A DNA stretch of 64,000 nucleotides from Candidatus Tayloriibacteriota bacterium (GTDB lineage Bacteria > Patescibacteriota > Minisyncoccia > Phycocordibacterales > PALSA-1337). Location of the stretch: NCBI GenBank assembly GCA_052034805.1, contig JBPOID010000003.1, positions 3,502 to 67,501 of the forward strand. The letters are read 5' to 3'. Both the position numbers and the translations under genes were made by a program. Numbering within the stretch: position 1 is the first letter of the stretch; the number at the start of each line of letters is the position of its first letter. Positions 41,635 to 64,000 of the stretch are shown one piece after another. Under the pieces are notes generated by a model. It was not told where the DNA came from, made no database searches, and was given only the letters and a program-made list of their open reading frames with translations.

Positions 41635-42303
41635 ATGAAAATCTTAATTATTGAGGATGATCCTGATATATCACTATTCATAAAAGTAGGTTTTGAAACC
41701 GAAGGATATGTAGTGGATAGATCATTTGATGGAAAAGAAGGTTCATACATGGCAAGAACAAATAAATACGATGTAATCATTCTAGATAATTCTCTACCAT
41801 TAAAGAACGGTCTAGAAGTATGCGATGAAATAAGGGGTTCTGGCTCAACTGTACCCATTATTTTCTTATCTGTTATAGGAGATACAAATAGGAAAATATT
41901 AGCTTTAGAAAAAGGAGCTGATGATTATATGACAAAACCATTTTCATTCGAAGAATTAAAAGCAAGAATAAAAGCACTTACAAGACGACCTAGGAAAATA
42001 GAAAGTCCAATTATAAAGGTTGGAGAATTGTCTTTGGATATAGAAAAACAAATAGCCTATAGAAATGATAAAGCTATATATTTAACAAGAAAAGAATATA
42101 ATTTATTAGAATATCTGATCAGAAATCATGGAATGGTTGTATCTAGAGGTATGATAATGGAACATGTATGGGATGCAAATAGTGATCCATTTTCAAATAC
42201 TATAGAGGCACATATAGTAAATCTCAGAAAGAAAGTAAATATCGATAATAAGAAAGACATTATAAGAAATGTACCTGGACGAGGTTATATTATTGATGCA
42301 TAA
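41635..42303 (+). CDS. OmpR-family response regulator
   Basis: MKILIIEDDPDI...DVIILDNSLP (receiver Asp) and C-terminal winged-helix ...VWDANSD...RKKV...PGRGY. Confidence 0.9.
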   Translation: MKILIIEDDPDISLFIKVGFETEGYVVDRSFDGKEGSYMARTNKYDVIILDNSLPLKNGLEVCDEIRGSGSTVPIIFLSVIGDTNRKILALEKGADDYMTKPFSFEELKARIKALTRRPRKIESPIIKVGELSLDIEKQIAYRNDKAIYLTRKEYNLLEYLIRNHGMVVSRGMIMEHVWDANSDPFSNTIEAHIVNLRKKVNIDNKKDIIRNVPGRGYIIDA

Positions 42304-42484
42304 CTATAAATTTTATCATTTCTTTATTATTTTTTTATAATTTCTTTATCTGTTATATGTACAATAATCCCAATTATGAAGGTCGACATAATTATCCATT
42401 AAATATTTATAAGACTGTTAGATTATTATTGTTATGGGTATTGGGAATAAACAATAATTACAGTCTTATTTATATTTAATTATA

Positions 42485-43387
42485 TTGATAAATAATATGA
42501 AGGATTTATTAACTTATATACCAATATTAATATTTATAATAATATTATTTAAACTATCTGATAGAGAAATAAAGAAAAGCCTAAATAAAGCAAAAGCATC
42601 AGAAAAACTATTATTATTACAAAAGAAGCAATTAGAAATAGAAATAGGAGAAGAAGCAAATAAACTCAGAGAAAATAGATTTCAGAGAATGAATGAGTTA
42701 TCGAAAGCTGCAGAATTTGGAAAATTGGCTCAAGGCATATTCCACGATCTTATGACTCCCCTAACATCTATAATACTTCATACAGAAAGGTTAGATAAAA
42801 CATCAATAAAAGACATAGAAACAATAAACAATACATTAAAGAAAACAGCTGAGGCCTCACATAAAATGGCTCAGTATATAGAAAATATAAAATCATCCAT
42901 AAGAAATGAGCAAATGAAAAAAGAATGCTTCATTGAACAAGAAATAAATGATGTATTAGATATATTAGGATACAAAATAAGACAAGCAAATATATCTATA
43001 AATAAGAATGTATCAGATAAATATTCTCTGTATGCAGATCAAATAAAGATAAGACAAATTCTATTAAATATAATCTCAAATGCCATAGATTCATATAATG
43101 ATACAGATAAAGAAGATAGAACCATCAATATAAATGTAAGCAAAATAGATAATAATCTAATTATAAAAATAAAAGATAATGGATGTGGTATAAAAAAAGA
43201 AAATATTGATAAAATATTTCAACCATTCTTTTCAACAAAAGATAAAGAGAAAGGTATCGGCATCGGATTAACTACAGTAAAGAAAATAGTGGAGGAGGAT
43301 TTATATGGAAAAATATATGTATATAGTGAAGAAAATAATGGTACCTCTTTAAATATAGAAATACCTCATACAATATATAAATCTTGA
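42485..43387 (+). CDS. Sensor histidine kinase (single TM, HisKA + HATPase_c)
   Basis: H-box GIFHDLMTPL; N/G boxes NIISNAIDS, DNGCGI, GIGIGL. Confidence 0.85.
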   Translation: MINNMKDLLTYIPILIFIIILFKLSDREIKKSLNKAKASEKLLLLQKKQLEIEIGEEANKLRENRFQRMNELSKAAEFGKLAQGIFHDLMTPLTSIILHTERLDKTSIKDIETINNTLKKTAEASHKMAQYIENIKSSIRNEQMKKECFIEQEINDVLDILGYKIRQANISINKNVSDKYSLYADQIKIRQILLNIISNAIDSYNDTDKEDRTININVSKIDNNLIIKIKDNGCGIKKENIDKIFQPFFSTKDKEKGIGIGLTTVKKIVEEDLYGKIYVYSEENNGTSLNIEIPHTIYKS

Positions 43388-46152: not shown

Positions 46153-47472
46153 CTATTTAGGCAATTCAACTGTAACTGTTGTACCAACATTTAATTCTGA
46201 AGAAAGAAAGATTGTACCTCCATGAAGTTCTATTATTTTCTTTGATATATATAGACCTATACCACTTTCATTTGGTTCTATAGATATAGCATTCTTCGAT
46301 CTATGAAGTCTATAGAAAACATAAGGCAAATCACCTGAAGCAATACCTATTCCGGTATCTCTAACAGTAATTCTTACAAAAGAAGGTATTTCTTCTACTG
46401 TAATAGTTACATGACCTTTCGGAGAATACTTTATTGCATTATCTATTATATTTGCAAGAGCAGGTCTCATTTTCTCTCTATCTGCATTTATAAGGAAAGA
46501 GCTAGGAGCAATGAAAGAAACTTTAACTGATTTCTTTATTATAAGGAAATTTAATTCAGCAATGATAGATTGTATTATTCCGACAATATCTACTTTTTCT
46601 ATATATATTTTTACCGAATTCTCTGTATCTTCTGCGGTTTTTAGCATTTGATTCACAACTTCTATAGCACCTTTTATTCTATCCATACCAGCATCTATAA
46701 GAGATATAGTCTCTTGTGGTAGGGATTGTGAGGACTTTATCATTTCTAATGTCCATTTTACAGCTGATAAAGGTGTACGTAATTGATGTTGTGCAACGCT
46801 CAAGAAATCCCCTTTCAGGCTATCTATTTGTACAGTTTCTGCTAATTTCTTTGCAGTCTCTTCATTTCTATATTTATGATACATTATTTCTATAATCAAA
46901 CTATATACAAAATAAGATATAACACCTATAAGAAATGTTTCTATTATATGTTTAGCAATAAGTGCAGAATCAATACTCGCAGATGGAGTGAAAACTATCA
47001 TAAAAGCAAAAGCTATAGTTATGACCATGCCCATTATTCTGGTATATATTCTATCCAAGAATACAGAAGTAGATATTATAGGAAAAAATAAAGTAAATAT
47101 AAAAGAACTATTAGTACCGCCTGTTATATATATTACATATAAGAAAAATAATACATAAGCATATATAGCAAGTACAAATAATGCATTCTTTTTCAAGAAT
47201 TCATTTAATGTAACTAATATAAAATACACTATACCTATCGCAAATAAAGCCATAACAGCATTATCTATATTCTCATTAAGCCATGTAAAGTATTGAGGGA
47301 GAAAATAAACAAAAAAACCAACAACAACTGGTATAAGTGCCCCCATCAAGCCTAGAGCATAATAATATTTCTTGAGTTGTAGGGCCGATAATTCTTGTGA
47401 GCTTTTATTAACTTTATTATCTGTATTTTTTACTATCTCATTATTTATATTATTTTTATTTAAAGGTTCCAT
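46153..47472 (-). CDS. Sensor histidine kinase with ~6 N-terminal TM helices
   Basis: H-box SVAQHQLRTPLSAV; ATP-binding NIIDNAIKYS, DTGIGI, GIGLYISKKIIELHGG. Confidence 0.85.
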   Translation of the reverse strand: MEPLNKNNINNEIVKNTDNKVNKSSQELSALQLKKYYYALGLMGALIPVVVGFFVYFLPQYFTWLNENIDNAVMALFAIGIVYFILVTLNEFLKKNALFVLAIYAYVLFFLYVIYITGGTNSSFIFTLFFPIISTSVFLDRIYTRIMGMVITIAFAFMIVFTPSASIDSALIAKHIIETFLIGVISYFVYSLIIEIMYHKYRNEETAKKLAETVQIDSLKGDFLSVAQHQLRTPLSAVKWTLEMIKSSQSLPQETISLIDAGMDRIKGAIEVVNQMLKTAEDTENSVKIYIEKVDIVGIIQSIIAELNFLIIKKSVKVSFIAPSSFLINADREKMRPALANIIDNAIKYSPKGHVTITVEEIPSFVRITVRDTGIGIASGDLPYVFYRLHRSKNAISIEPNESGIGLYISKKIIELHGGTIFLSSELNVGTTVTVELPK

Positions 47473-51439: not shown

Positions 51440-53060
51440 TCAAATTGAAATAATCCACGAGCAGCTTCCGCTACCCGTGCCTTGTTACGACTTACTCCCT
51501 GTCATTGAGCTTACCTTAGGCCGCGACAAGCGCGGACTTCGGGTACTCCCAACTCCCTTGAGTTGACGGGCGGTGAGTACAAGACTTGAGAACGTATTCA
51601 CCTCGGTATAGCTGACCCGAGATTACTAGCAATTCCGGTTTCATGAGGTCGAGTTGCAGACCTCAATCCAAACTGACGCACCCTTTATAAGGATTTGCTC
51701 CGCCTTTTATCGGCATTGCTTCCCGTTGTAGGTGCGATTGTATCGCGTGTGTAGCCCAGGGTATCAGAGGGACATGCTGACCTGGCGTCATCCTCACCTT
51801 CCTCCCACGACGCAGAGCACAATTATATATTGAAAAATGAATCTCTAAGAAAATTGGTTCGCTTCTCTTGCGGTCGGGAGACCTTTTCGGTCCGCTTTCG
51901 CTCTCGAAAAGGCTCCCTCCCCGGAAGCTCACACAATTTTCTAAATATAATTCCGCGCTATGTCGTGGGCAGTCTCGCCTGACAAATATAACAGGCAACG
52001 AGGGTTGCGTTCGTTACCCCACTGAAGGGAACAACTCAAGCCACGAACTGACGACGGCCATGCATCACCTGCCTAACTGTCTTGCGACGACCAAAGTTTC
52101 TTCTGGTCTTCAGCTAGGTTTCAAACCCTGGTAAGGTTCTTCGTTTGTCATCGAATTAAACCACATGATCCACTGCTTGTGCAAGTCCCCGTCTATTCCT
52201 TTGAGTTTTAACCTTGCGGTCGTACTACCCAGGCGCTTCTCTTAACGCGTTAGCTAAGCCTCTCAGAGGGTCGATACTCCGAAAAGCGAGAGAAGATCGT
52301 TTAGGGCGTGGACTACTGGGGTATCTAATCCCATTCGCGACCCACGCTTTCATGTTTCAGTGTCAGGAGTGCTCCAGTTTCTTGCCTTCGCTTTTGGTGT
52401 TCCCCATAATATCAACGCATTTCACCGCTACACTATGAGTTCCAGAAACCCCTCGCATCCTCTAGTTGTACCGTTTCCTTTGCATGTCCCCGGTTAAGCC
52501 GAAGAATTTAACAAAAGACTAATACAACCACCTACACATCCTTTACGCCCAATGATTCCGGATAACGCTTGAGGCACTCGTATTACCGCTGCTGCTGGCA
52601 CGAGTTTAGCAACCTCTTATTCGCCAAGTACTATCAATAAACTTTCTCCCTGGCAAAAGGTTTTTACGTCCCTAGGGACTTCATCAACCACGCGGCGTCG
52701 CTCCGTCAGGCTTTCGCCCATTGCGGAAGATTCTCGACTGCGGCCACCCGTAGGTGTATGGACCGTCTCTCAGTTCCATCGGTGGGGGTCACCCTCTCAG
52801 GTCCCCTAAGCGTCTTAGCCTTGGTAGGCCATTACCCTACCAACTAGCTGATACTGAACAGGCCCATCCAAAAGCGATAAATCTTTACTCTTTCGAGACC
52901 ATCAAGTATTAACTCATCTTTCGATGAGGTATCCCTGACTCTTGGGTTGGTACCTGCTTATTACTACCTCGTCTGCCACTGTGTATTGCTACACCGTTTG
53001 ACTTGCATGCCTTATCCACGCCGCCAGCGTTCATCCTGAGCTAGGATCAAACTCTTAACT
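51440..53060 (-). rRNA. rrs: 16S ribosomal RNA (about 1.62 kb, with internal expansion and atypical 3' tail; boundaries approximate)
   Basis: Reverse complement contains the 5' end AGAGTTTGATCCTAGCTCAGGATGAACGCTGGCGG (53035..53055), the 806R site GGACTACTGGGGTATCTAATCC, decoding-centre GTACTCACCGCCCGTCA, the 1492 region AAGTCGTAACAAGG, and helix 45 with GGAA loop. No 23S/5S follows. Confidence 0.92.
51806..51968 (-). other. ~160-nt AT-rich expansion/insertion in 16S helix 40 region
   Basis: Conserved flanks ...GACGCCAGGTCAGCATG/GGAGGAAGGTGAGGATGAC and ...GAGACTGCCCACGAC are separated by ~165 nt, against ~12 nt (CCGGTGACAAACC) in typical 16S. The flanks CCACGAC...GTCGTGG can pair to extend the helix. 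Confidence 0.6.
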
Positions 53061-53064
53061 AAAA

Positions 53065-53347: not shown

Positions 53348-54610
53348 TTAACGACTTTCTAGAGAATTTACCTCATTTTCCTTGATTTTCTTTATAATTC
53401 TCCATCTATGTCTGAAATGGCTTATTGTTACATAACTTATAAATGCCAATGCCAATACTATATAAACGATATAATCTATTACAAATCTAATAAGTGAAAA
53501 AGATGATCTTATTTCTATTGATTCATCTCTTATATTGCCCGCCTTATCTATAGCACGCACTATAACCTGTAAATTACTAGTATCAGTTACTGGTACTTGG
53601 AATGGACTTTCTGTTTGTATAAATACTGGGGAAACAGTTAGAGGTTGAGACTTATCTATAATACCAACTTCATAATGATCAATGCCAGAAAGATTATCTG
53701 TGGTAAAGAAAGAAACTAGGGTTCTTTGTGAAAGTATTGTCGCCGCTAATAAATAATTAGCTTCGGGTTTAAAATCTGCAGGAGGAGCAGTATCTATCCT
53801 TATTAGGAAATGTCCTGTACTTCCCCATTCACCCTTCGCTCCACCCTTGTGAGCCTTCACGTGGAAATACCATAGACCATCCGCCAAATCAGTAAATCCT
53901 TTACTCGTATCATTAGAATTTATTACACTATCTGGAATAGTAGAAAATTTATTATCTAAAACATAACTAAAACCATCTACATCTGTATCACGATCCCATG
54001 ATACAACCGGACTATTATTATTATACCAATCATCTTGTACTGGATGTGTTTCTGAGAAAATTCTCACACCATCTGGAGCCTTGGTAATTATTTCATAATT
54101 AGCTCTGCCTAGATCTGCAACAGCTTCAGTACCCATACCATCATTCAAAAGTATTTTTGAATCCGAACGAATACTTACTGTAGCATTACCTGTTTTCAAT
54201 GCCTTAAATGTTATAGTACCAATAAGACCTGATTTTGTAGTTATACCATCAGGTATAACTCCAACATATCTAGCCATACCTCTTTCATTATCATATTTTG
54301 GTGGTTCAACCCATATACCGATAATCGATTTACCTCCAGATGGTTTTATTATTGATAATTTATTTTTATCAAAATTAACTACTATTTCTACACCATTTAT
54401 ACTAGAATTTTTTGTATTTATAATAATAGGAACTTCAAATGTCGAACCTTCAACGAAACTCCCAGAACGAGGAGATAATGATACTTCAACTTTCGGAAGT
54501 AATTTCATAGCATTTACTGTTACTGTTTCTGCATGAAGAGGTAGAGAAAATGACATTGATATAGTCAATGCAATAATTAAAAATAAATATGATTTAATTC
54601 TATTAATCAT
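53348..54610 (-). CDS. Cell-surface protein: signal peptide, cohesin-like beta-sandwich module, second conserved domain, C-terminal TM anchor
   Basis: Signal peptide MINRIKSYLFLIIALTISMSFSLPLHA. Module VEVSLSPRSGSFVEGSTFEVPIIINT...IGTITFKALKTGNATVSIRSDSKILLNDGMGTE has cohesin-like periodicity. C-terminal helix FVIDYIVYIVLALAFISYVTISHF + RHRWR. Paralogous to the next two genes. Confidence 0.55.
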   Translation of the reverse strand: MINRIKSYLFLIIALTISMSFSLPLHAETVTVNAMKLLPKVEVSLSPRSGSFVEGSTFEVPIIINTKNSSINGVEIVVNFDKNKLSIIKPSGGKSIIGIWVEPPKYDNERGMARYVGVIPDGITTKSGLIGTITFKALKTGNATVSIRSDSKILLNDGMGTEAVADLGRANYEIITKAPDGVRIFSETHPVQDDWYNNNSPVVSWDRDTDVDGFSYVLDNKFSTIPDSVINSNDTSKGFTDLADGLWYFHVKAHKGGAKGEWGSTGHFLIRIDTAPPADFKPEANYLLAATILSQRTLVSFFTTDNLSGIDHYEVGIIDKSQPLTVSPVFIQTESPFQVPVTDTSNLQVIVRAIDKAGNIRDESIEIRSSFSLIRFVIDYIVYIVLALAFISYVTISHFRHRWRIIKKIKENEVNSLESR

Positions 54611-55764
54611 TATAATTCAATGTCTCTAATCTCTCTACCTATAGTTCTTTCAGCAGAATTTATATCTTTCTTTAATAAGGATTTATCTTCTATATCTTCT
54701 CGGAGAATATCAAAGGATTTATGTACTATATCTTCTACTTTATGCATCTCTCTTTTATATTTTCCATTACTATTTGTCTTTCTTTTTTCATCTTTATCTT
54801 CTGTATATATATGTATTATTAAATAAACAATAATAAGTATTAGTATTAACAATATAATCCATATTTGCCATGGAATATCAGAGAAAAAATTACCTATATT
54901 TATAATTATTTTATTTGATTCATTACTATGAGTACCATCACTCTTTATCATAATAGCTGTTACTGTATATTCACCAGACTTTAGAGAATTAGGTACTGGT
55001 AAATTGAAATTTCCATTATCTTCAGCTATATCAGTTATAAATATCTTAGTACCTTTTTCAGAGATAAAAGTTATTAATACTTGTGCTTTAGAATAATCAG
55101 ATATTCCTATAATAGATGGCTGATTATACTTTATTCCATATACTATCTCTGGCGACTTTAGAGTTAAAGGTTTCTCTATCACAGGTGCTGGTACTACTTC
55201 TGGAGTATTTTCTTTTATCTCTTTAATTGGTTCCGGCTTTACACTGGCTTCTTTTATAGAAAACATTGCCCCTGATAGATTGCCAGTTATGTCTGTGCCT
55301 TCTCCATCATTTGCAAGTATTTGACCAGATTGAAAAGAAATATTAGCTGAACCGATCTTTAATGGTCTTATAACTATAGTAAGAATATTACCGATTGAAC
55401 CACCTTTATATCCACCGAGTGCAACTCCTTCGAAACGGACTGTACCGTTTGATCTAGAAAGAGTTGGTTCTGTTACCCAAAAATTCAAAGCGGAACCAGA
55501 TTTTGAAACAGATTCAATAGAAAATAATGATGTTGGAATATTTATAACAGAAGATACAGCATTAAAAGCTATATCACTAGTAACATTTACCTTTAATATT
55601 ATAGAACTACCAACTTCATAACTACCAGAAGATGGACTGATGGATAGTGTCGCAGCAAAAACTGTATTAGAAAATAATGGTACAAAAAAGAATATTAAAG
55701 ATAACAATACTAGCGGATAAATATTGATTTTATTTTCTTTTTTGAAAAAATCACAAATGTACAT
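54610..55764 (-). CDS. Cell-surface cohesin-like module protein (paralog 2) with C-terminal TM anchor and ~70-aa charged cytoplasmic tail
   Basis: Signal peptide, LSISPSSGSYEVGSSIILKVNVTSD...ILTIVIRPLKIGSANISFQSGQILANDGEGTD, TM helix IWIILLILILIIVYLIIHIY. Confidence 0.55.
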   Translation of the reverse strand: MYICDFFKKENKINIYPLVLLSLIFFFVPLFSNTVFAATLSISPSSGSYEVGSSIILKVNVTSDIAFNAVSSVINIPTSLFSIESVSKSGSALNFWVTEPTLSRSNGTVRFEGVALGGYKGGSIGNILTIVIRPLKIGSANISFQSGQILANDGEGTDITGNLSGAMFSIKEASVKPEPIKEIKENTPEVVPAPVIEKPLTLKSPEIVYGIKYNQPSIIGISDYSKAQVLITFISEKGTKIFITDIAEDNGNFNLPVPNSLKSGEYTVTAIMIKSDGTHSNESNKIIINIGNFFSDIPWQIWIILLILILIIVYLIIHIYTEDKDEKRKTNSNGKYKREMHKVEDIVHKSFDILREDIEDKSLLKKDINSAERTIGREIRDIEL

Positions 55765-56600
55765 ATTACTAAAATTATAGCAAGAATTATGTAATGTTCA
55801 TACCATGGAATATTCTTCGGATTAACCATAACTACTCTTATATTGTTTGATTTATCAACAGCTTTTACATAAATCTTGGTTCTTAATTCTTGATCCTTCA
55901 AAAGATATGGGCTTGTAGCCTCTATACAATCAGATTCAATACCCTCACAAATCTCATAATGATCAATACCAGAAATCTTATCTTGAGTATTAAATACTAT
56001 AAAATATTTATCATCAAAAATATTAGGGTCTTTATTTATTTCTGGAACAAATGTTTCCGGCAAATCTTTATCTAAAATATTATATTCACTAGGTATATAA
56101 TCCTTATTAGTTTTATTAAAAATATTTAATTGTAAATTCTTTATTTTGGCTTTTATTTCTGTACCCTTTCCATCATTACGGAATAATTGTGATTTGATTA
56201 CCTTTAGAGATGTATTACCAGACTTCTTTATCTCAAAAATAATCCTTATAATATTTCCCTTATCTCCATTATATCCACCAGGAGTTATACCAGAAAGATA
56301 TATTTCACCATCTTTTAATATATTTGGTTTATCTATCCAAATATTAACTATAGAATCGCCTGTGTATATATTTTTAAAATCAAGTATATCGCTAGGATAA
56401 GAAATGGTACTTGCTATAGTGTTTATAGATTCATTTTGTGTATTCAAATATAAATCTACAGATATAATATCTCCAACTCTTAAAATATCATTAGAAGGAT
56501 TAACAATACTTAATTCAGCAGCATAAACAGTATTACTAAATAGTAATACTGTAATTAAAAATAAAATTGTAATAATTATTTTCTTCATTATCCTGTCCAA
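55710..56600 (-). CDS. Cell-surface cohesin-like module protein (paralog 3) with C-terminal TM anchor
   Basis: Signal peptide MKKIIITILFLITVLLFSNTVYA. LSIVNPSNDILRVGDIISVDLYLNT...IIRIIFEIKKSGNTSLKVIKSQLFRNDGKGTE. Shares SGIDHYE...VKAVDKSNNIR with paralog 1. TM HYIILAIILVICTFVIF. Overlaps the downstream paralog by 55 nt in a different frame. Confidence 0.55.
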   Translation of the reverse strand: MDRIMKKIIITILFLITVLLFSNTVYAAELSIVNPSNDILRVGDIISVDLYLNTQNESINTIASTISYPSDILDFKNIYTGDSIVNIWIDKPNILKDGEIYLSGITPGGYNGDKGNIIRIIFEIKKSGNTSLKVIKSQLFRNDGKGTEIKAKIKNLQLNIFNKTNKDYIPSEYNILDKDLPETFVPEINKDPNIFDDKYFIVFNTQDKISGIDHYEICEGIESDCIEATSPYLLKDQELRTKIYVKAVDKSNNIRVVMVNPKNIPWYEHYIILAIILVICTFVIFSKKKIKSIFIR

Positions 56601-57955
56601 TTAAATGCCATAATACTGAAATCTATAAGATCTATTTTTGCATCACCATTCAATCTTTCTTTTTCTATAAGCTTAAATGATTCACTGAGTATATGTTTAT
56701 ACCAAAAAGCAGCAATAGAGAAGTCTACAAGATTAACTCTGCCATCTTTATTCAAATCTCCTCTCAAAATTTTATTTGCCAAAGAGACTGCGGCAACATT
56801 TTTATTACCGACAATAAAACCTAAAGAATTACTGAAAGGACTTATTTCACCATTGATTGCTGCTTTTAATTTTGTAGAATGTTGACCCATTTCGAGAGGA
56901 GTAGTATCAAAATTATATAAATATATACCATTCTTATCAGAATTAGTTTTAGAGAAAATAGTTTCATTAGAATTAACTTGAATAGTTAAATCTCCATTGC
57001 CAACAGATTGTCCAAATATGGCTATATTATCACCTCTCTTAACTTCACTTTTATCTAAAGAAATCGTAGGAGTTATGAATATACCACCAACACTAGTTAT
57101 AACACCTCTTGTTACAAATATCTGAAATGTAAAAGGACTAGATTTCACATTTCTATTATCTTCACCGTAAACACCAAAAATATAACTACCTGGTGAAAGA
57201 TTGGTTATTCTTGCTGTAAAATTACTATCGGGACCAGCAATTGTATTAAGTATTAATTGTCCATCTTTTAGAAATCCTACCTTACTTAAAGGATAAGCTC
57301 TCCCAGAAAGGACAACTCCTGTATCTCCAGAATCAGTATCACCACCCCCACCTCCTCCTCCGCCCCCGCCACCACCTCCCCCTCCTCCGCCACCACCTCC
57401 ATTATTATTGTTTGAAGATACTGGTGTAGAAGATATTTGACTTGAAGAAGCTATAGCGTTACCAAAAATATCTTTAACAACTATAACGAAATAATAAGTA
57501 GTATTATTAGTCAAACCAGAAATACTAGAAGATGTGACATTACCGAGAGAAGTATAAGTATATGGACCTCCTGACACAGTCGATCTAGCTATATTATAGC
57601 CAGATGGAGTCCAGCCTAAAAATCCAGATGAATTTGTCCATGATAAACTAATAGAAGAATCGCCTGGTGTAGCAGAAACCACAGGTGAAGATACGAATGG
57701 ATAGAATAATGAACCCGCATTCAATTTATAATCTGTTGCACTACTAGTACCAATACTCATTTGCGATAGACTACTCCATAATTGAAAACTCGTAGAAGTA
57801 GCGTAATTAGCGGAAAACATAACTGGATCTACAACTTGATAAGATCCTGATGTGTATTCATCAGCATTAGATACAAAGACAATAGAAAGGAATAGGAATA
57901 ACGCCAGTGTTAAAGCTCTTAGATATCTAATGCCTTTATATACATCTTTTGTCAT
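56588..57955 (-). CDS. Secreted dockerin-containing protein: signal peptide, Fn3-like domain, 22-Gly linker, Ig-like domain, C-terminal type-I dockerin
   Basis: Signal peptide ...LFLFLSIVFVSNA. Fn3-like SATPGDSSISLSWTNSSGFLGWTPSGYNIARS...TTYYFVIVVKD, G22 run. C-terminal GDLNKDGRVNLVDFSIAAFWYKHIL...LNGDAKIDLIDFSIMAFNW has two Ca-binding DxNxDGxVNxxD-type dockerin repeats. Confidence 0.7.
   Translation of the reverse strand: MTKDVYKGIRYLRALTLALFLFLSIVFVSNADEYTSGSYQVVDPVMFSANYATSTSFQLWSSLSQMSIGTSSATDYKLNAGSLFYPFVSSPVVSATPGDSSISLSWTNSSGFLGWTPSGYNIARSTVSGGPYTYTSLGNVTSSSISGLTNNTTYYFVIVVKDIFGNAIASSSQISSTPVSSNNNNGGGGGGGGGGGGGGGGGGGGDTDSGDTGVVLSGRAYPLSKVGFLKDGQLILNTIAGPDSNFTARITNLSPGSYIFGVYGEDNRNVKSSPFTFQIFVTRGVITSVGGIFITPTISLDKSEVKRGDNIAIFGQSVGNGDLTIQVNSNETIFSKTNSDKNGIYLYNFDTTPLEMGQHSTKLKAAINGEISPFSNSLGFIVGNKNVAAVSLANKILRGDLNKDGRVNLVDFSIAAFWYKHILSESFKLIEKERLNGDAKIDLIDFSIMAFNWTG
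57341..57410 (-). repeat. 70-nt near-100% G+C (CCN)n tract encoding a 22-residue poly-glycine linker
   Basis: ACCACCCCCACCTCCTCCTCCGCCCCCGCCACCACCTCCCCCTCCTCCGCCACCACCTCC in a ~28% GC genome; mixed GGN codons. Confidence 0.8.
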
Positions 57956-57979
57956 TTTCTAATAAACCTCTATTGTCAA

Positions 57980-58363
57980 TTATTGGCCGATCTTTAGAGT
58001 TGCAACTTCAACTATTATATTAGACTTATCATCATATATAAGTGCTGTCTTGGATACAGGATAGACTATAAGATAATCACCTACCTTTGCTTTAACGAAA
58101 AATGGATTATTAACAAAAGGTTTAGTATCAGAAATCATAGCCACTACTGGTTTCTCATTTGTTGGTAAAGCTATTAATTTACCAACTTTATCTATAAGCA
58201 TAGTTACTTTTGCTTCATTTTCTTTATCTTGATTCTGTTTTAGAGAAACGGTTTTACTGTAGAAATAAAATAAAGATACTGATGCAATAATTATAAGTAT
58301 GATTATCACTAGAATTGGTTTAGTGAGAAACTTTGTTTTTGTATTGTTTGTATTAGGTTCCAT
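57980..58363 (-). CDS. Small N-terminally membrane-anchored protein, paralog A of a tandem triplet
   Basis: 127 aa. TM ILVIIILIIIASVSLFYF, then conserved LIALPTNEKPVVAMISDTKPFVNNPFFVKAKVGDYLIVYP...EVATL. Confidence 0.55.
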   Translation of the reverse strand: MEPNTNNTKTKFLTKPILVIIILIIIASVSLFYFYSKTVSLKQNQDKENEAKVTMLIDKVGKLIALPTNEKPVVAMISDTKPFVNNPFFVKAKVGDYLIVYPVSKTALIYDDKSNIIVEVATLKIGQ

Positions 58364-58373
58364 ATTTTTTTAA

Positions 58374-58751
58374 TTATTTTGAAGAATTTTTATTTGTTGT
58401 TTCCAAATTTATCTTGGCTACTTCCAGAATCTTATTTGCTACTGGATCATAAAGATATATTTTGCCAGTATTTTTATAAAAGACTACATTATCACCATTT
58501 TTTGCTTTTGCGAAAAATGGGTCCTTATTCAACTTTTCTATATCATTTACAACCATTATAACAGGTGTTTCATCTTCTGGTAGAATTATCAATTTACCTA
58601 ATCTAGAAACCAAATCCTCAGTTTGTTGTTCTACTGAACTCTGTGGATTATCTTTAATGTTTCCTGCTTTCTTGTAAAAGTTAAACGCAAAGCCACTTAT
58701 GATAATAAACACAACTAAAAGTAAAAAGAAAATTTTATTTCTGTAATTCAT
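58374..58751 (-). CDS. Small N-terminally membrane-anchored protein, paralog B
   Basis: 125 aa; LIILPEDETPVIMVVNDIEKLNKDPFFAKAKNGDNVVFY...EVAKI aligns with paralogs A and C. Confidence 0.55.
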   Translation of the reverse strand: MNYRNKIFFLLLVVFIIISGFAFNFYKKAGNIKDNPQSSVEQQTEDLVSRLGKLIILPEDETPVIMVVNDIEKLNKDPFFAKAKNGDNVVFYKNTGKIYLYDPVANKILEVAKINLETTNKNSSK

Positions 58752-58816
58752 AATGACAATTATAAACTATTGATAGTTATTAAAGCAAATCTATTATCCA
58801 CAAAATAGCCAGTAAA

Positions 58817-59221
58817 TTAGCGATTTGTTGTGGAATTTATATCTGTTGTTTTATTTGCAGAAACAGAAGATATTTCTATAATTTTCTTTATGGAAGGCCT
58901 CCATAATATAGCCTTTTGAGATGTTTGATATATAAGAACCTTATCCCCCACTTGTGCATTAGCAAAGAATTTCTGATCTTTTAATTTTGATGGGTCTGAT
59001 ACTGTCGCCAAAGTTGGTGTTTCATCTTTTGGTAATACTATAAATACACCTATATCTTTAACTATTTGATTTGTTTCTCTAGAAATAGCTTCACCAGGAT
59101 TCTCTAGATTACGTATTTTATTTATAAAAATAATATTAGATACTATAAGACCAATAATTATTATAATAAGACTTATAATAAAAACTTTTATTCTTGATGG
59201 TAATAAATTAAATGTTTTCAT
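58817..59221 (-). CDS. Small N-terminally membrane-anchored protein, paralog C
   Basis: 134 aa; VFIVLPKDETPTLATVSDPSKLKDQKFFANAQVGDKVLIYQ...EISSV. Confidence 0.55.
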   Translation of the reverse strand: MKTFNLLPSRIKVFIISLIIIIIGLIVSNIIFINKIRNLENPGEAISRETNQIVKDIGVFIVLPKDETPTLATVSDPSKLKDQKFFANAQVGDKVLIYQTSQKAILWRPSIKKIIEISSVSANKTTDINSTTNR

Positions 59222-59245
59222 ATCTAGAGTATATCATAATTTATT

Positions 59246-62200
59246 CTATTGATTAGAGCTTGTATCAGAAGTTGCTGGTACGGTAACTACCGCTTCTGGT
59301 ACTGGAACAGAAGCAGATGTATCAGGAGTTATAGATACTGGAGCTACTTCTGTATTTGTCTGTACTGAATTATTTGTATTAGATATTGTATTGGTATTTG
59401 TATTAACATTATTATCTGTATTTATTACAGTATTTGTCTCTGTCTGATTTTCAGTATTAGGTACTGATGTATTTACTTCTGTATTATTAGAAGAACCAGA
59501 AGATTGACTTGTATTAGGCGTTATAACTGGAGTTGAAGTTGGAGTAGATGTTGAAATAGTTGTAGTTATAGTATTTAATATTGGAGAAACTATTTCTGTA
59601 TTTCCAATATAAGGAGTTGTTGTTGATATTGTTGGTGTTGTTATTATTGGATTTACTATAACTGTACTTGTTGCTGTTGAAGTAGCATTTAATGTATTTG
59701 CTTCTGTATTTACCATATCAGAATCTTTTGAAGTAAATAACTTTGCATTCTTCACAGCGAATGCTGTCCAACTAAATTCTATATCAACAGGTGCTGGTCT
59801 ATTTAGAATAATTGTGAATCCTTTTACACTTCTCTTTGTTATTAGAGATCTTATATCCTTATCAAATATTATATCTTCAATAGATTCTGTAGAAGTAGCT
59901 TCGTCTACACTAATCGAAGCATTAACGATAGGAGTATCTATATATTCTCTATCAAAGACAATATCGACTTTCTTTGCACCCTTCTTTATAAGAGCATTGC
60001 CTGCAGTATCGACGGTAAAGTATGGTCTTCCAAAGAAGATAGTATCAGAAAGTATAGATACCATAGTTGAAGTGGCACCTATAGAATCAACTAACAATCC
60101 TCCAGAGAATAGAGCTTGTTTGCTTATATTTATAGAATCAAATGCTGCAATATTTGCTGTTATAGAACCCTTGAATAAAGCATTTCCAATATTATCAAAT
60201 GACAACAATACAGTCTTTGTAGATGTAGCTATTGTAGGCAATGTAGATGTAGCTTCTGTAGAAGTTGATGAGTCTGTATTTATATCTACAACTGAAGCTA
60301 ATATATTCTTGCTCAAAGAGAATATACCATCATTTCCTAATTCCATAACTATAGAACCATTCTTTATAATAGATGTTTCAAGTGTATTTGTCTTTATGTT
60401 CTTAGCAGATATAGTTATACCTTCTACTGATTCTGATTTTAATATTCTAGTTATAACATTTGAACTTAGAACATCTGATACTGCTGTAATTTTATCTGCA
60501 AATACTTCAGATCTAGCAGAAGCCATGGTATCTCTCTGTTTCTTTACATTTGAAAGATAAGATAAGAGATCTGCTTGATGTGAATCATATATTCCAGAAG
60601 CAAATCCTGCTAATTCATTTGTAGAAGTAGCTATGTCTTGAGGATTAATATCTGAATTAATATTTGAATTAGTATTTGAATCTAGAAGAGATTTCAATTG
60701 ATCACCATTCAAAGCTAGAGAATCATCAGCGGAATCTCCTAGATAATCAACTAGATTTACGAACATTGTTATAGTTGTACATTTTCTATTTGGTATTGCA
60801 ATTCCACCCGCTGGACAATCGACTAGATTTGCAGTGTCAATACCAGATAATGCTTTTCCTATAACATGACCAGCTAAAGTTGCCTTCATAGCATAACCAG
60901 GAATACTTGATGGAGTAAGTTTATCACCTTGTCTTATCATTCCATTTTCTGTTGTAACCTTTACAGGTACACGACCTATAAGAGCTATTGGATAAGAATT
61001 CTCTGTATATGCACCAGCTACGAATCCAGGATCAGTTGAAACAACTCCCATTACATCTCCTTGATATTGATATGTCGTTTTCTTTACACCATGATTATTC
61101 TGTGGATCTATAGCTACAACATCTCCGAAATCTAATTCTTCTTGTGATGTATATCTTTCTGCAAGATCGGCACCAGAAGTATTGAATGTTCCTCCAGTCT
61201 GAGCAAATATATCTCCAGCAGAACTTACGCGGAACATAGATAATCCATCTGATTGCAAATCAATAAGATCTTTATCTTTTGTAACCTTGTATTCATACAA
61301 TACTGGAGTTATAACAGGTCTCTGAGGATAAGCCATAGCAGAACCACCATTGTTATTCCATGTATCAGTATATATACCTCCATAAGATGGGAATGATCTT
61401 CGGAAATTAAAGTTTATAGAAAGCCAAGTATCATTTGGTCCTGGATTTATAAGTCCACCCGATTTTGCAATTTCTCTTGTTGTAGATGTTGACAATGCAG
61501 CTTGAGTAGGAGCGGTTCTAACCTCTGCAGATATACCTCCTAGAGCAGTCATACCGACATTTGACTTCCATACCAAGGTAGAATTTGAATCAAGTTTTGT
61601 ACCCACAGGAGAAAGGTCAAATTGTTCAGATTTATATATACCACTAGGTACCCAACCAGCATCATATGTTTGAACAAGACTAGTTGCAGAAGTTGTAGCA
61701 CCTCCCAATATAATTACGAATTTTCCATCAGATCTTTGGAATGCAACTCCTCCAGAGTTAGCAGTAGCAGAGTTTGCAAGAGTAGGTCCAGCTACAAACG
61801 ATCCTATAGTTGATTGTGGTCCCAAAGCAGTAAGAGCACCAGCCTGTTCTATATAAATATTTGTAGTGTTCTGACCAGCTAGAGCGGCAGTACCAGCACC
61901 TTCTACTATGAGCCATGAACCATCTGGACGAGGTAATGCATAACCACCCAATCCTACTCCATTACTTGATGTAAATGCAGGACCAGTTGTTGTTATTTGG
62001 TTTTGAATAGGATTGTAAACACCAGTACCAGTTGAACCTGCACAAGAAGCAGCTGTAGCACCTCCACGAACTATAATCCATTGTCCATCAGATCTTTGGA
62101 ATGCAAATGCTCCTGGTCCAGTACCTCCAGTGTTTGTAGGAGCTCCAGTAAATGTGAAATCCATAGTATAAGGATCGAAGTTATTCGTAATAGTGTTAGG

Positions 62201-64000
62201 AGTAGGACAAGTTTTACCTCGAGGATATGTAGGCATACCAGGAATAAATAGATATGTACCATTTGGACGAGGCACCCATAGAGATCCAGGACCAACAGCA
62301 GCAAATGTTGCAGCAGTTGTCAGAGGACGAGGTCCAACTGTCATAGTATTATTCACAGGATCATATATAGAAGAATTACTTGTAAGACCTCCATGCATTA
62401 TAAGTACACGTCCATTAGGAAGTGGTATAGCAGAAGCACCGATACCAGCACCAGTTGTACCAGATACACTGGCTAAGTTCGGACCATCTATAAATGTATT
62501 TGCTACTGGATCATATATATTTGTTGTAGAAGTCGCAGCGAAACTACCTTCACCAAGAATAATTAAGAATTTGCCATCTGGCCTCTTGAATGCAAATCCT
62601 CCTGTACCTATAGGTGCTGTAGGAGAAACTGTATTTAGAGTTGTTGTACCAGTTGCTTCATCATATATTTGAGAGTTTGGAATAGATGAACTTGCAGATA
62701 TAATTACGAATTTTCCATCAGGCCTCTTCATAACTATAGTAGTTGAAGCTGTAGGAACATAAAGTCTTGGGGCATTCTGGAATGAGCCATTGTAGAAATT
62801 AGGATTTGTAGCATTTATAGTAGAGCCATATCCAACACCAGCAGCCAAAGCCAATGCATTTGCACGATTCTTATCATTTGTAATATTTATAGCAGCAGGA
62901 CCAGAATCTGGAGCAGTTGAAGAAGATACGGCATTTCCAAAATCAAATTGAGTTCTATGAAGTGATGTACTATTATCTACAACAATTGATGATATAGTTG
63001 GATCAGCATTCACACGACGATATCTGGTTATACCTCCCTTTCTTAATCCCCATTCTTGATCAAGGAATCTCGGTAATTCACGTTGGAATGTAAATTTGAA
63101 TTGAATAAGATTGTCAGCTGTTGTAGTTGCACGTATAAGATCTCCACTATTTCCTATTGGTCTATATTCTGCAGAAGAACAGGAAGATGGACTTGTAGCT
63201 GTTCTTACATAAACTTTAATAGTTCCTTCACTATTTGTAGTCCAATTCAAAGTAGAATCAGGAGAAAGATTTGTACTACTTATACATTCACTTTCATAAT
63301 ATGCATCTTGTTGATTGGCACGATTAGTACCTGTAATAAAGTTCATATCATATATATCCATGGTGTTCTTGAATCCACCATTTATAACAGCATATCTACC
63401 ATCAGGTAACATAAATGCAGTTAGACCATAACCACCAGTATTAGATAGAGTCAAACTAGTATTAGAGAATTGTGGTGCAAGATAATTACTTGTACCAGGT
63501 ATACCAGATCCAGCATCTATAACATTTATCATATTTCCTACTGTGGTACTTGCTGAAAGTAATAGATAATTACCATCTTGTCTCCATATAGATTGAGCCC
63601 CATCAGAAAGTATAGATGTAGGTCCAACACCTAGATCACCAGAGAATCCTCCTGTTGAACCAGTTGTTGTTCCGACAGGTTTGTAAATAAATGATTGAGA
63701 AGCAGGACCTGGTAATGTAAGGAATGTACCATCTTGTCTTCTTATAGAGAATGCTCCATTAGCTATTCTTACTGGCGTAGTAGGTCCTGTAAGCATAGTA
63801 CCTGTAATAATGTTTGAGGCAACTGTGTTTCCAGAATAAGGATTATATACATATGTTGTATTAGTACCTCCTTGATAAATAAGGAAAGTACCATCATCTC
63901 TTTGTAATGCATGTGTACCAGCACCCCAAGTACCAGTTATACCTATACTTACATTTGTATATCCTGCATTTGTTGCAGCAGAAGGGTTATATATACCCCA
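59246..64000 (-). CDS. Giant (>1580 aa) Kelch-type beta-propeller repeat surface protein with Thr/Ser/Asn-rich C-terminal tail; 5' end beyond window edge
   Basis: At least 12 repeats of ~45-50 aa with YDP/YNP...N and R.DG..L(I/V)..GG hallmarks (e.g. FAFQRSDGQWIIVRGG, NIYDPVANTF, SSIYDPVNNTM). The frame stays open upstream of the first Met (63796) to position 64000 and continues in Kelch-like sequence (LQRDDGTFLIYQGG). Last ~170 aa are TSTPTSTPVITPNTSQSS...NTNTNTISNTNN low complexity. Confidence 0.75.
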   Translation of the reverse strand, partial: WGIYNPSAATNAGYTNVSIGITGTWGAGTHALQRDDGTFLIYQGGTNTTYVYNPYSGNTVASNIITGTMLTGPTTPVRIANGAFSIRRQDGTFLTLPGPASQSFIYKPVGTTTGSTGGFSGDLGVGPTSILSDGAQSIWRQDGNYLLLSASTTVGNMINVIDAGSGIPGTSNYLAPQFSNTSLTLSNTGGYGLTAFMLPDGRYAVINGGFKNTMDIYDMNFITGTNRANQQDAYYESECISSTNLSPDSTLNWTTNSEGTIKVYVRTATSPSSCSSAEYRPIGNSGDLIRATTTADNLIQFKFTFQRELPRFLDQEWGLRKGGITRYRRVNADPTISSIVVDNSTSLHRTQFDFGNAVSSSTAPDSGPAAINITNDKNRANALALAAGVGYGSTINATNPNFYNGSFQNAPRLYVPTASTTIVMKRPDGKFVIISASSSIPNSQIYDEATGTTTLNTVSPTAPIGTGGFAFKRPDGKFLIILGEGSFAATSTTNIYDPVANTFIDGPNLASVSGTTGAGIGASAIPLPNGRVLIMHGGLTSNSSIYDPVNNTMTVGPRPLTTAATFAAVGPGSLWVPRPNGTYLFIPGMPTYPRGKTCPTPNTITNNFDPYTMDFTFTGAPTNTGGTGPGAFAFQRSDGQWIIVRGGATAASCAGSTGTGVYNPIQNQITTTGPAFTSSNGVGLGGYALPRPDGSWLIVEGAGTAALAGQNTTNIYIEQAGALTALGPQSTIGSFVAGPTLANSATANSGGVAFQRSDGKFVIILGGATTSATSLVQTYDAGWVPSGIYKSEQFDLSPVGTKLDSNSTLVWKSNVGMTALGGISAEVRTAPTQAALSTSTTREIAKSGGLINPGPNDTWLSINFNFRRSFPSYGGIYTDTWNNNGGSAMAYPQRPVITPVLYEYKVTKDKDLIDLQSDGLSMFRVSSAGDIFAQTGGTFNTSGADLAERYTSQEELDFGDVVAIDPQNNHGVKKTTYQYQGDVMGVVSTDPGFVAGAYTENSYPIALIGRVPVKVTTENGMIRQGDKLTPSSIPGYAMKATLAGHVIGKALSGIDTANLVDCPAGGIAIPNRKCTTITMFVNLVDYLGDSADDSLALNGDQLKSLLDSNTNSNINSDINPQDIATSTNELAGFASGIYDSHQADLLSYLSNVKKQRDTMASARSEVFADKITAVSDVLSSNVITRILKSESVEGITISAKNIKTNTLETSIIKNGSIVMELGNDGIFSLSKNILASVVDINTDSSTSTEATSTLPTIATSTKTVLLSFDNIGNALFKGSITANIAAFDSINISKQALFSGGLLVDSIGATSTMVSILSDTIFFGRPYFTVDTAGNALIKKGAKKVDIVFDREYIDTPIVNASISVDEATSTESIEDIIFDKDIRSLITKRSVKGFTIILNRPAPVDIEFSWTAFAVKNAKLFTSKDSDMVNTEANTLNATSTATSTVIVNPIITTPTISTTTPYIGNTEIVSPILNTITTTISTSTPTSTPVITPNTSQSSGSSNNTEVNTSVPNTENQTETNTVINTDNNVNTNTNTISNTNNSVQTNTEVAPVSITPDTSASVPVPEAVVTVPATSDTSSNQ

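Follow-up and report, generated by a model that had tools for sequence, protein, structure and literature searches.

One end of the 64-kb stretch of contig JBPOID010000003.1 of a Candidatus Tayloriibacteriota bacterium analysed here (hereafter the window) is taken up, at positions 53348-64000, by eight consecutive open reading frames (ORFs), named g1 to g8, all lying on the minus strand (Table 1). A first-pass annotation, made from the letters of the sequence, had read them as a surface assembly locus of the cohesin-dockerin type; all the ORFs that it listed are present, with the limits given in the table. Neighbouring ORFs overlap or nearly abut, which is consistent with one transcript. In a scan of the locus for promoters and terminators, promoter-like sites were no more frequent than expected by chance and none of the internal terminator candidates was convincing, a result consistent with a single operon that adds nothing further. 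Relatives of the locus were collected by scanning one genome per GTDB species with two peptide motifs of g1. A total of 142 relatives were confirmed; the loci of 79 of them, nearly all labelled Patescibacteria, were fetched, and the six-frame ORFs of all loci were searched with phmmer and hmmsearch.

Table 1. Predicted genes, modules and neighbouring rRNA gene of the g1-g8 locus (positions of the window; aa, amino acids; TM, transmembrane; Ig, immunoglobulin; HMM, hidden Markov model).
Feature	Position	Strand	Description
g1	53348-54610	-	420 aa; signal peptide, cohesin, two Ig/FN3-like domains, C-terminal TM helix, short conserved cytoplasmic tail
g1 cohesin module	about 54083-54493	-	Pfam Cohesin above cut-off and fold match
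g2	54610-55764	-	384 aa; signal peptide, cohesin-like module, Ig-like domain, TM helix, helical cytoplasmic tail
g2 cohesin-like module	about 55249-55656	-	BLASTP to g1 and g3, HMM cross-matches
g3	55710-56600	-	296 aa from TTG, 292 aa from the ATG chosen by gene callers on an identical contig; signal peptide, cohesin-like module, Ig-like 'SGIDHYE' domain in common with g1, C-terminal TM helix
g3 cohesin-like module	about 56115-56522	-	BLASTP to g1, HMM cross-matches
g4	56588-57955	-	455 aa; signal peptide, conserved N-terminal domain at aa 33-90, FN3, poly-Gly linker, two Big_6-type Ig domains, C-terminal dockerin
g4 FN3	about 57416-57685	-	Pfam fn3 (sub-threshold in the window copy), profile match to solved FN3
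g4 poly-Gly linker	57341-57400 (aa 186-205)	-	20 residues
g4 dockerin	56591-56782	-	Dockerin_1 in orthologs, profile match to solved dockerins
g5	57980-58363	-	127 aa; N-terminal TM helix and extracellular domain
g6	58374-58751	-	125 aa; N-terminal TM helix and extracellular domain
g7	58817-59221	-	134 aa; N-terminal TM helix and extracellular domain
g8	59246 to beyond 64000	-	1584 open codons up to the window edge, corresponding to the C-terminal 1584 aa
g8 propeller 1 (part)	63311-64000	-	Kelch-like blades, followed by beta-sandwich 1
g8 propeller 2 and beta-sandwich 2	61286-62788	-	7-bladed, Kelch-type; AlphaFold2 model
g8 'G2-like' domain	60716-61285	-	phage-fibre-like, about 190 residues
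g8 conserved C-terminal domain	59726-60130	-	about 135 residues, followed by Thr/Ser/Asn-rich tail
16S rRNA gene	51443-53062	-	complete, bacterial; 1620 nt against a 1533-position model; directly downstream of g1

The products of g1, g2 and g3 have in common an N-terminal module of about 135 residues. BLASTP comparisons gave E values of 5e-16 for g1 and g2, 3e-12 for g1 and g3 (with a second matching segment at 2e-8), and 3e-22 for g2 and g3. HMMs built from the orthologs of each module match the other two, at E values ranging from 1e-14 to 1e-29, and match nothing else in the window. Judged by these comparisons, the paralogy of the three proteins is far beyond chance. The module of g1 is recognized by the Pfam Cohesin family (PF00963) with 33.7 bits, the cut-off being 24.1. 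No Pfam match was obtained at E <= 0.1 for g2 and g3 themselves; Cohesin is matched by 7/48 of the g2 orthologs and by 10/46 of the g3 orthologs.

The fold was compared for g1 only, on an AlphaFold2 (AF2) model obtained from 28 diverse homologs (mean predicted local distance difference test score, pLDDT, 83.5). Read from the N-terminus, the model shows a helix, then three beta-sandwich domains, and lastly a second, long helix. Foldseek comparison of the first domain to the PDB retrieved the type I cohesins 6kgc_A, 4dh2 (OlpC), 3ul4 (OlpA) and 2vo8, with target TM-scores of 0.66-0.75 and root-mean-square deviations (rmsd) of 2.9-3.9 A, and by these alignments the domain conforms to the nine-stranded jelly-roll beta-sandwich of the cohesin fold. 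The best match overall is 2w1n, the cohesin+FN3 pair of Clostridium perfringens GH84C. When the PDB was searched with a sequence profile of the g1 family, the sole match was a marginal one to a cohesin (5g5d, E 0.088). The first-pass annotation had proposed three tandem paralogs, each made of a signal peptide, a cohesin-like module and a C-terminal TM anchor, and had indicated structure prediction as a check of the fold. Pfam (for g1), the g1 fold, BLASTP and the HMM matches across families all agree with that proposal.

All three proteins begin with a hydrophobic stretch resembling a signal peptide, which ends at an Ala-rich site, and each has a single hydrophobic helix near the C-terminus, followed by a charged tail. 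By these sequence features g1, g2 and g3 are predicted paralogous single-pass membrane proteins. Because the signal peptide is N-terminal and the TM anchor C-terminal, the cohesin should be extracellular, and exposed at a distance from the membrane on an Ig-like stalk. The cytoplasmic tails of g1, marked by the motif GHHIIR, and of g2, helical and about 65 residues long, are conserved among orthologs. g1 is about 60% identical over 28 diverse orthologs from Nomura-, Wolfe-, Zambryski-, Taylor- and Paceibacteria, and its invariant motifs (SETHP..WYNNN, DGLWYFH, FFTTDNLSGIDHYE) fall mostly outside the cohesin. Homologs of g1 are detectable in number of 797; the best 120 of these, which come from metagenome-assembled genomes (MAGs) of Nomura-, Wolfe-, Zambryski-, Pace- and other Patescibacteria, have 56-69% full-length identity to g1, apart from two near-identical copies of the window protein. 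At loci L036, L038, L067, L086 and L087 g1-type genes are found in two or three tandem copies, so the set of cohesin anchors can expand beyond three.

Apart from its signal peptide, the g4 product contains no hydrophobic segment. It is thus predicted to be a secreted protein lacking a membrane anchor of its own, which would need a tether. In the Pfam search the window copy gave sub-threshold matches to fn3, to Ig-type (Big) domains and to Dockerin_1. Among 45 g4 orthologs, Dockerin_1 is matched by 33 (E <= 0.01, best 8.9e-10), Big_6 by 40 and fn3 by 25. The profile of the family matches the solved type I dockerins 2y3n_B (E 2.8e-4) and 5nrm_B (E 9.4e-4), as well as 4fl4_A and 1daq, and solved FN3 domains. 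The first calcium loop, DLNKDGRVNLVD (D-L-N-K-D-G-R-V-N-L-V-D), is canonical, and a DFSI-AF helix motif comes after each of the two loops, an internal duplication typical of type I dockerins. The C-terminus of g4 is therefore assigned, from family-level sequence evidence, to the type-I-like dockerins. The dockerin HMM found no second copy in the window, and in 87 related loci it found g4 orthologs only. Between the FN3 and Ig domains are 20 glycines in a row, for which mixed GGN codons are used. The stretch is conserved in the family, where the corresponding G columns of the alignment are nearly invariant, and can be described as an unusual, fully flexible tether.

The three small ORFs g5, g6 and g7 encode proteins with 28-32% mutual identity and 20 invariant columns. 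Alignment with 43 relatives from other loci shows one TM helix at the N-terminus and, after it, a domain of about 70 residues marked by the motif LPxxExP...D...L...FF..A..GD.V..Y. As previously supposed, they are small membrane-anchored paralogs; the anchor is N-terminal, and the domain is predicted to be extracellular. No match for the family was obtained in Pfam, NCBIfam or the PDB; a profile search of the PDB retrieved designed helical repeats only, at E > 0.2, and these were discarded as unusable. A profile of the three window copies matched 6538 cluster representatives at E <= 1e-3 among 1.84 billion. By this count the family is very large, and it is unnamed.

The window holds only part of g8. 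On the Logan contig L001, which is 100% identical over 10,972 bases, the protein extends to at least 2043 aa and is still cut at the contig end. Its portion within the window is arranged as four Kelch-like blades, a beta-sandwich, seven blades, a second beta-sandwich, the G2-like domain, a linker, the C-terminal domain and the Thr/Ser/Asn-rich tail. The blades correspond to seven repeats fitting xRxDGKFLIIxGG...IYDPxxN at aa 426-780, and to four more before aa 230. g8 matches no Pfam family at E <= 0.1, the Kelch models PF01344, PF07646, PF13418 and PF24681 included. Kelch_1, Kelch_2 or DUF1668 are matched by the distant homologs P0182, P0205, P0206 and P0222, and the profile of the g8 family matches the PDB entry 6ryw ('Kelch domain-containing protein') at E 3e-8. 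An AF2 model of aa 405-905, obtained from 45 homologs (pLDDT 88.5; predicted TM-score, pTM, 0.87), matches galactose oxidase and other AA5 oxidases, in which a 7-bladed Kelch propeller is followed by a C-terminal sandwich, at E about 1e-11 and 12-15% identity, and also the Kelch domains of KLHL12, KLHL20 and Keap1 (target TM-score about 0.6). g8 comprises two units, each made of a 7-bladed Kelch-type propeller and a beta-sandwich. The earlier description of a Kelch propeller protein exceeding 1580 aa holds for the size and, as far as model and profiles indicate, for the fold; at the level of Pfam no Kelch match is found in g8 itself. In the 45-sequence alignment the propeller has invariant columns of G, P, D, R and K alone; a single His comes close to invariance, and neither a Cys nor an invariant His pair is present. 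The ligands of copper radical oxidases (two Tyr, two His, one Cys) are thus not conserved in the family, by a coarse test made on alignment columns and not on superposed residues, and for this reason no catalysis is proposed for g8.

The segment of g8 spanning aa 944-1075 has 38% identity (E 4e-11) with the C-terminal end of gp359 from the jumbo phage PA5oct, a virion protein confirmed by mass spectrometry, whose gene adjoins the long tail fibre gene. In the homolog P0223 the region aligning to g8 aa 905-1039 matches Peptidase_G2 (PF11962) with 30.5 bits against a cut-off of 25. Aa 901-1112 of g8 alone have no Pfam match, and searching the PDB with the G2-like segment likewise gave nothing. 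The G2-like domain is the extreme C-terminus of shorter g8 homologs, and one homolog is named 'tail fiber domain-containing protein'. No relatives of the C-terminal half of g8 were found in IMG/VR viral contigs. The similarity points to a fibre-like, possibly trimeric g8, and is to be taken as a lead and not as a demonstration. Homologs of 1000-2770 aa are 110; the complete ones (1500-2770 aa), found across Patescibacteria, begin with signal peptides. In the Parcubacteria contig L088 (1773-15622) a g8 homolog of 1873 aa is preceded by an overlapping ORF of 2747 aa on the same strand; the true gene may measure about 4600 aa, and be split by a frameshift or an assembly error.

Gene order was counted in the non-redundant loci having at least 3.8 kb upstream of g1 (n=46). 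The order g4-g3-g2-g1 is kept in all 46 Patescibacteria loci, and the same order is found in independently precomputed gene calls of Zambryskibacteria and other contigs. The synteny that the first-pass annotation had suggested looking for in related genomes is thus extensive. One to four small TM genes are located directly upstream of g4 in 28/44 loci, and a g8-like gene comes next in 18/41. Most loci without a g8-like gene have another giant ORF (1000-2500 aa) in the same position; nine of these giants share with g8 only the G2-like and/or the C-terminal modules, and not the propellers. Since the anchor genes and the C-terminal modules of the giant recur across loci, these genes and the base of the giant seem conserved, and its N-terminal part exchangeable. 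Conservation of gene order over dozens of Patescibacteria genomes strengthens the idea that the genes form one functional system. Across 35 genomes the most conserved modules are the g4 dockerin and the g1 cohesin, with mean pairwise identities of 0.63 and 0.60, respectively; the value is 0.51 for the g2 cohesin and 0.35 for the g3 cohesin.

Some loci carry additional genes. An ORF of about 320-340 aa, with no counterpart in the window, is found between the giant and the small TM genes in many of them, including L015, L017, L034, L045, L055, L056, L058, L069 and L080. In the Zambryskibacteria locus L004 a small gene for a GIY-YIG endonuclease (4875-5138) separates g4 from g3, and another is inserted upstream of g4 in L007 (5458-5781), which suggests that mobile elements of the homing type tolerate this locus.

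The whole locus is most simply read as a conserved envelope operon of Patescibacteria (candidate phyla radiation, CPR) of the Parcubacteria/Paceibacteria type, in which cohesins and a dockerin serve a non-cellulosomal surface assembly. Taken as a complete model, this is favoured by slightly more belief than doubt. Domain content suggests that the assembly probably anchors or displays giant fibres, and is not meant for plant digestion. The mechanism that we infer from gene order and domain content begins with g4, whose dockerin would dock, probably in a calcium-dependent manner, onto one or more of the membrane cohesins, so as to tether g4 to the cell surface. The protein is secreted, has no anchor, bears the only dockerin and is always encoded beside the only cohesins, which are membrane-borne; tethering by docking is the simplest reading of this arrangement. 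The best candidate partner would be g1, since its cohesin matches the dockerin in degree of conservation. g4, the small membrane proteins, or both, may in turn hold the giant fibre by its conserved C-terminal part: the conserved modules of the giant are encoded beside the small TM proteins and g4, and are therefore a likely attachment point. The variable, distal N-terminal part of the fibre, formed here by Kelch propellers, would contact a ligand on a host cell or on a substrate.

Several observations weigh against the docking model. The window copy of the dockerin scores 19.5 bits against Dockerin_1 (PF00404; residues 399-449, E 1.1e-3), below the cut-off of 22.9, and its second calcium loop, RLNGDAKIDLID (R-L-N-G-D-A-K-I-D-L-I-D), keeps positions 3, 5, 9 and 12 and lacks Asp1. 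What had been announced as a clear type I dockerin with two calcium loops stands for the first loop, for the orthologs and for the profile matches to solved dockerins; it does not for the second loop, nor for the score of the window copy, which had been proposed as a check. Mirror-tree analysis in the 35 genomes gave weak correlations between the dockerin and each cohesin (0.11-0.30), the lowest being that of g1, and was abandoned as a means of identifying the partner. Three cohesins face one dockerin in the operon, and two of them may have other partners or none. The sole link of g8 to g4 or to g5-g7 is gene adjacency. Lastly, identities of about 60% across the class, as measured for g1 and g4, would fit a housekeeping role in the envelope at least as well as host attachment; only the N-terminal part of the giant protein is variable, and by their conservation g1 and g4 look more like a core envelope machine than like a host-specific adhesin.

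The main alternative is a core envelope or S-layer-type complex in which cohesins and dockerin are housekeeping building blocks, for example a tether of the wall or of an S-layer coupled to the cytoplasm via the tails of g1 and g2, with no role in host contact and with the giant gene as a mere neighbour. The extreme conservation of g1 and g4, the location of the invariant g1 motifs mostly outside the cohesin, the conserved cytoplasmic tails, and the many loci in which the quartet has no recognizable g8 all suit such a complex, as does the presence of glycan-biosynthesis genes, which adjoin the operon in Zambryskibacteria and lie about 21 kb off in the window. A giant secreted ORF is nevertheless found upstream in most loci, even where it is not g8-like, and several of these giants carry the C-terminal modules of g8, which argues for a functional link. 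The explanation is compatible with cohesin-dockerin docking and differs from the anchoring of fibres mainly in purpose; we regard it as unlikely, yet deserving of serious weight.

Much less can be said for an enzyme-display system of the cellulosome, amylosome or toxin-complex type, exposing dockerin enzymes encoded elsewhere, or for g8 as a copper radical oxidase similar to galactose oxidase. The best fold matches of the g8 propeller and sandwich are indeed galactose oxidase and other AA5 oxidases, the g1 cohesin is closest to cellulosomal anchoring cohesins and to the C. perfringens GH84C cohesin, and three cohesins exceed one local dockerin. Nevertheless, no glycoside hydrolase or other degradative enzyme was detected in a scan of 30 other ORFs of the window, in line with the earlier remark that glycoside hydrolases are missing nearby; no second dockerin turned up in the window or in the 87 loci, the copper ligands are not conserved, and identity to the oxidases is 12-15%. 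Display of enzymes is thus very improbable. Derivation from a phage or mobile element, as a domesticated tail-fibre cassette or a prophage remnant, would account for the similarity of the G2-like domain to the PA5oct virion protein, for the Peptidase_G2 match of a g8 homolog and for the tail fibre name of another, and is scarcely credible given that phage genes are absent both from the operon and from its flanks, which hold the 16S rRNA gene, pyruvate kinase and an amidase, that gene order is kept in dozens of species, that viral contigs of IMG/VR hold no relative of the g8 C-terminal half, and that the G+C content of the locus, in an AT-rich window of about 25-38%, is not distinct as foreign.

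The anchoring of giant fibres by a docked g4 can be extended to a bolder proposal, in which the operon is the Parcubacteria apparatus for anchoring giant, modular, fast-diversifying fibres, that is, a cohesin-dockerin-coupled attachment organelle for an episymbiotic lifestyle. Its base would be formed by the three TM cohesin proteins with their conserved cytoplasmic tails, and g4 would act as adaptor on its poly-glycine tether. The small membrane proteins and g4 would grip the C-terminal modules of the phage-fibre-like giant, and exchangeable distal domains, Kelch here and other folds elsewhere, would recognize the host. This proposal is put forward tentatively, with distinctly more doubt than belief.

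To our knowledge, the ways in which CPR/Patescibacteria build their envelope and attach to hosts are largely obscure; for Parcubacteria we know of almost nothing, and of no cultured model. The operon provides a concrete list of parts: three membrane cohesins, a dockerin adaptor, a very large and unnamed family of small membrane proteins, and putative giant fibres with conserved bases and variable tips. Should docking be real, the cohesin-dockerin principle would reach beyond enzyme complexes, to the way in which reduced symbionts anchor giant fibres on their surface, and the g1 and g4 families would become markers for attachment machinery in metagenomes, proteomes and tomograms. A full-text literature search found no description of this operon, the matches being rumen and biogas cellulosomes and Omnitrophota giant proteins. 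The molecular principle is established already; for the architecture, for the partners and for the conservation across the lineage in Parcubacteria, no description exists as far as the search reaches. The first-pass annotation had spoken of an undescribed system, which within that reach is right for the operon and must be tempered for g1, because orthologs are already labelled 'cohesin domain-containing protein' at NCBI.

Other features of the window deserve mention. The 16S rRNA gene close to g1 may carry a small insertion, as judged from its length against the model. Neither 23S nor 5S genes are found anywhere in the window, the gene after 16S being that for pyruvate kinase, and the rRNA genes thus seem unlinked. 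An OmpR-type response regulator and two histidine kinases are encoded at 41635-43387 and 46153-47472, 6-12 kb downstream of the operon. Positions 1-32500 are occupied by a large region for surface-glycan biosynthesis, which includes a Wzt-type ABC ATPase, many glycosyltransferases (GT) of families GT1, GT2, GT4, GT11 and GT17, a carbamoyltransferase, a GDP-sugar dehydratase, GtrA and a GMC oxidoreductase. The cohesin operon of the Zambryskibacteria loci L004 and L005 is directly followed by a comparable set (GT1/GT4, asparagine synthase, GMC oxidoreductase, GT9), which hints at a link between the two clusters.

Single components of the locus resemble proteins known from other settings. The modelled fold of g8 aa 405-905 matches that of galactose oxidase and other AA5 enzymes and of KLHL/Keap1, and a sequence-profile match to solved Kelch proteins goes with it. 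In contrast to these, g8 has no Pfam Kelch match and no conserved copper ligands, and it carries the unit twice, within a secreted chain that exceeds 2000 aa and has fibre-like ends. The likeness to C-terminal domains of phage fibres and tailspikes (Peptidase_G2; PA5oct gp359) lies in sequence similarity and in the terminal position that the domain has in shorter g8 homologs, as in phage fibres. g8 itself differs in having no match to the Pfam model and in that the domain is internal, about 500 residues following it. The only related experimental observation found is on the cultivated saccharibacterium Southlakia epibionticum, in which a dockerin domain is attributed to SEML1_0315, an envelope protein that is essential (Wang et al. 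2023, Cell, PMC10633639). Like g4, it is a dockerin-domain, Ig-rich envelope protein of a Patescibacterium, and it is required for growth on the host; unlike g4, it is encoded by a stand-alone gene of 927 aa between a hydrolase gene and a tRNA gene, with no cohesin operon. Because of this different context SEML1_0315 was not adopted as a g4 ortholog.

As to the assembly, the closest counterparts are OlpA and OlpC of Clostridium thermocellum (3ul4, 4dh2), surface proteins that anchor cellulosomes and in which, as is expected here, a single cohesin captures a C-terminal type-I-like dockerin made of duplicated calcium-loop/helix segments. The g1 module superposes on them with a target TM-score of about 0.7 and an rmsd of about 3 A. 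The anchor is different, a C-terminal TM helix with a conserved cytoplasmic tail in place of SLH repeats; so is the carrier of the dockerin, an FN3/Ig protein in which the second calcium loop lacks the first Asp. Judged by its domain content the locus does not encode a cellulosome: none of the proteins carries more than one cohesin, and the only dockerin of the window resides on a non-enzymatic FN3/Ig protein. Tandem-cohesin scaffoldins, carbohydrate-binding modules (CBM) and dockerin-bearing enzymes, as found in cellulosomes, are missing nearby, and the host, unlike those of cellulosomes, is a CPR bacterium that is reduced and non-cellulolytic. Cohesins and dockerins outside cellulosomes have reportedly been catalogued in all three domains of life by Peer and colleagues in 2009. 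Among such cases GH84C of C. perfringens (2w1n), with related toxin complexes, exemplifies the use of the cohesin-dockerin pair outside plant cell wall degradation, and GH84C provides the best structural match of g1, in which an FN3 domain comes after the cohesin. The C. perfringens modules are part of secreted glycoside hydrolases; here they are borne by dedicated membrane anchors and by a non-enzymatic partner, in an operon that is conserved throughout the lineage and includes the gene of a putative giant fibre.

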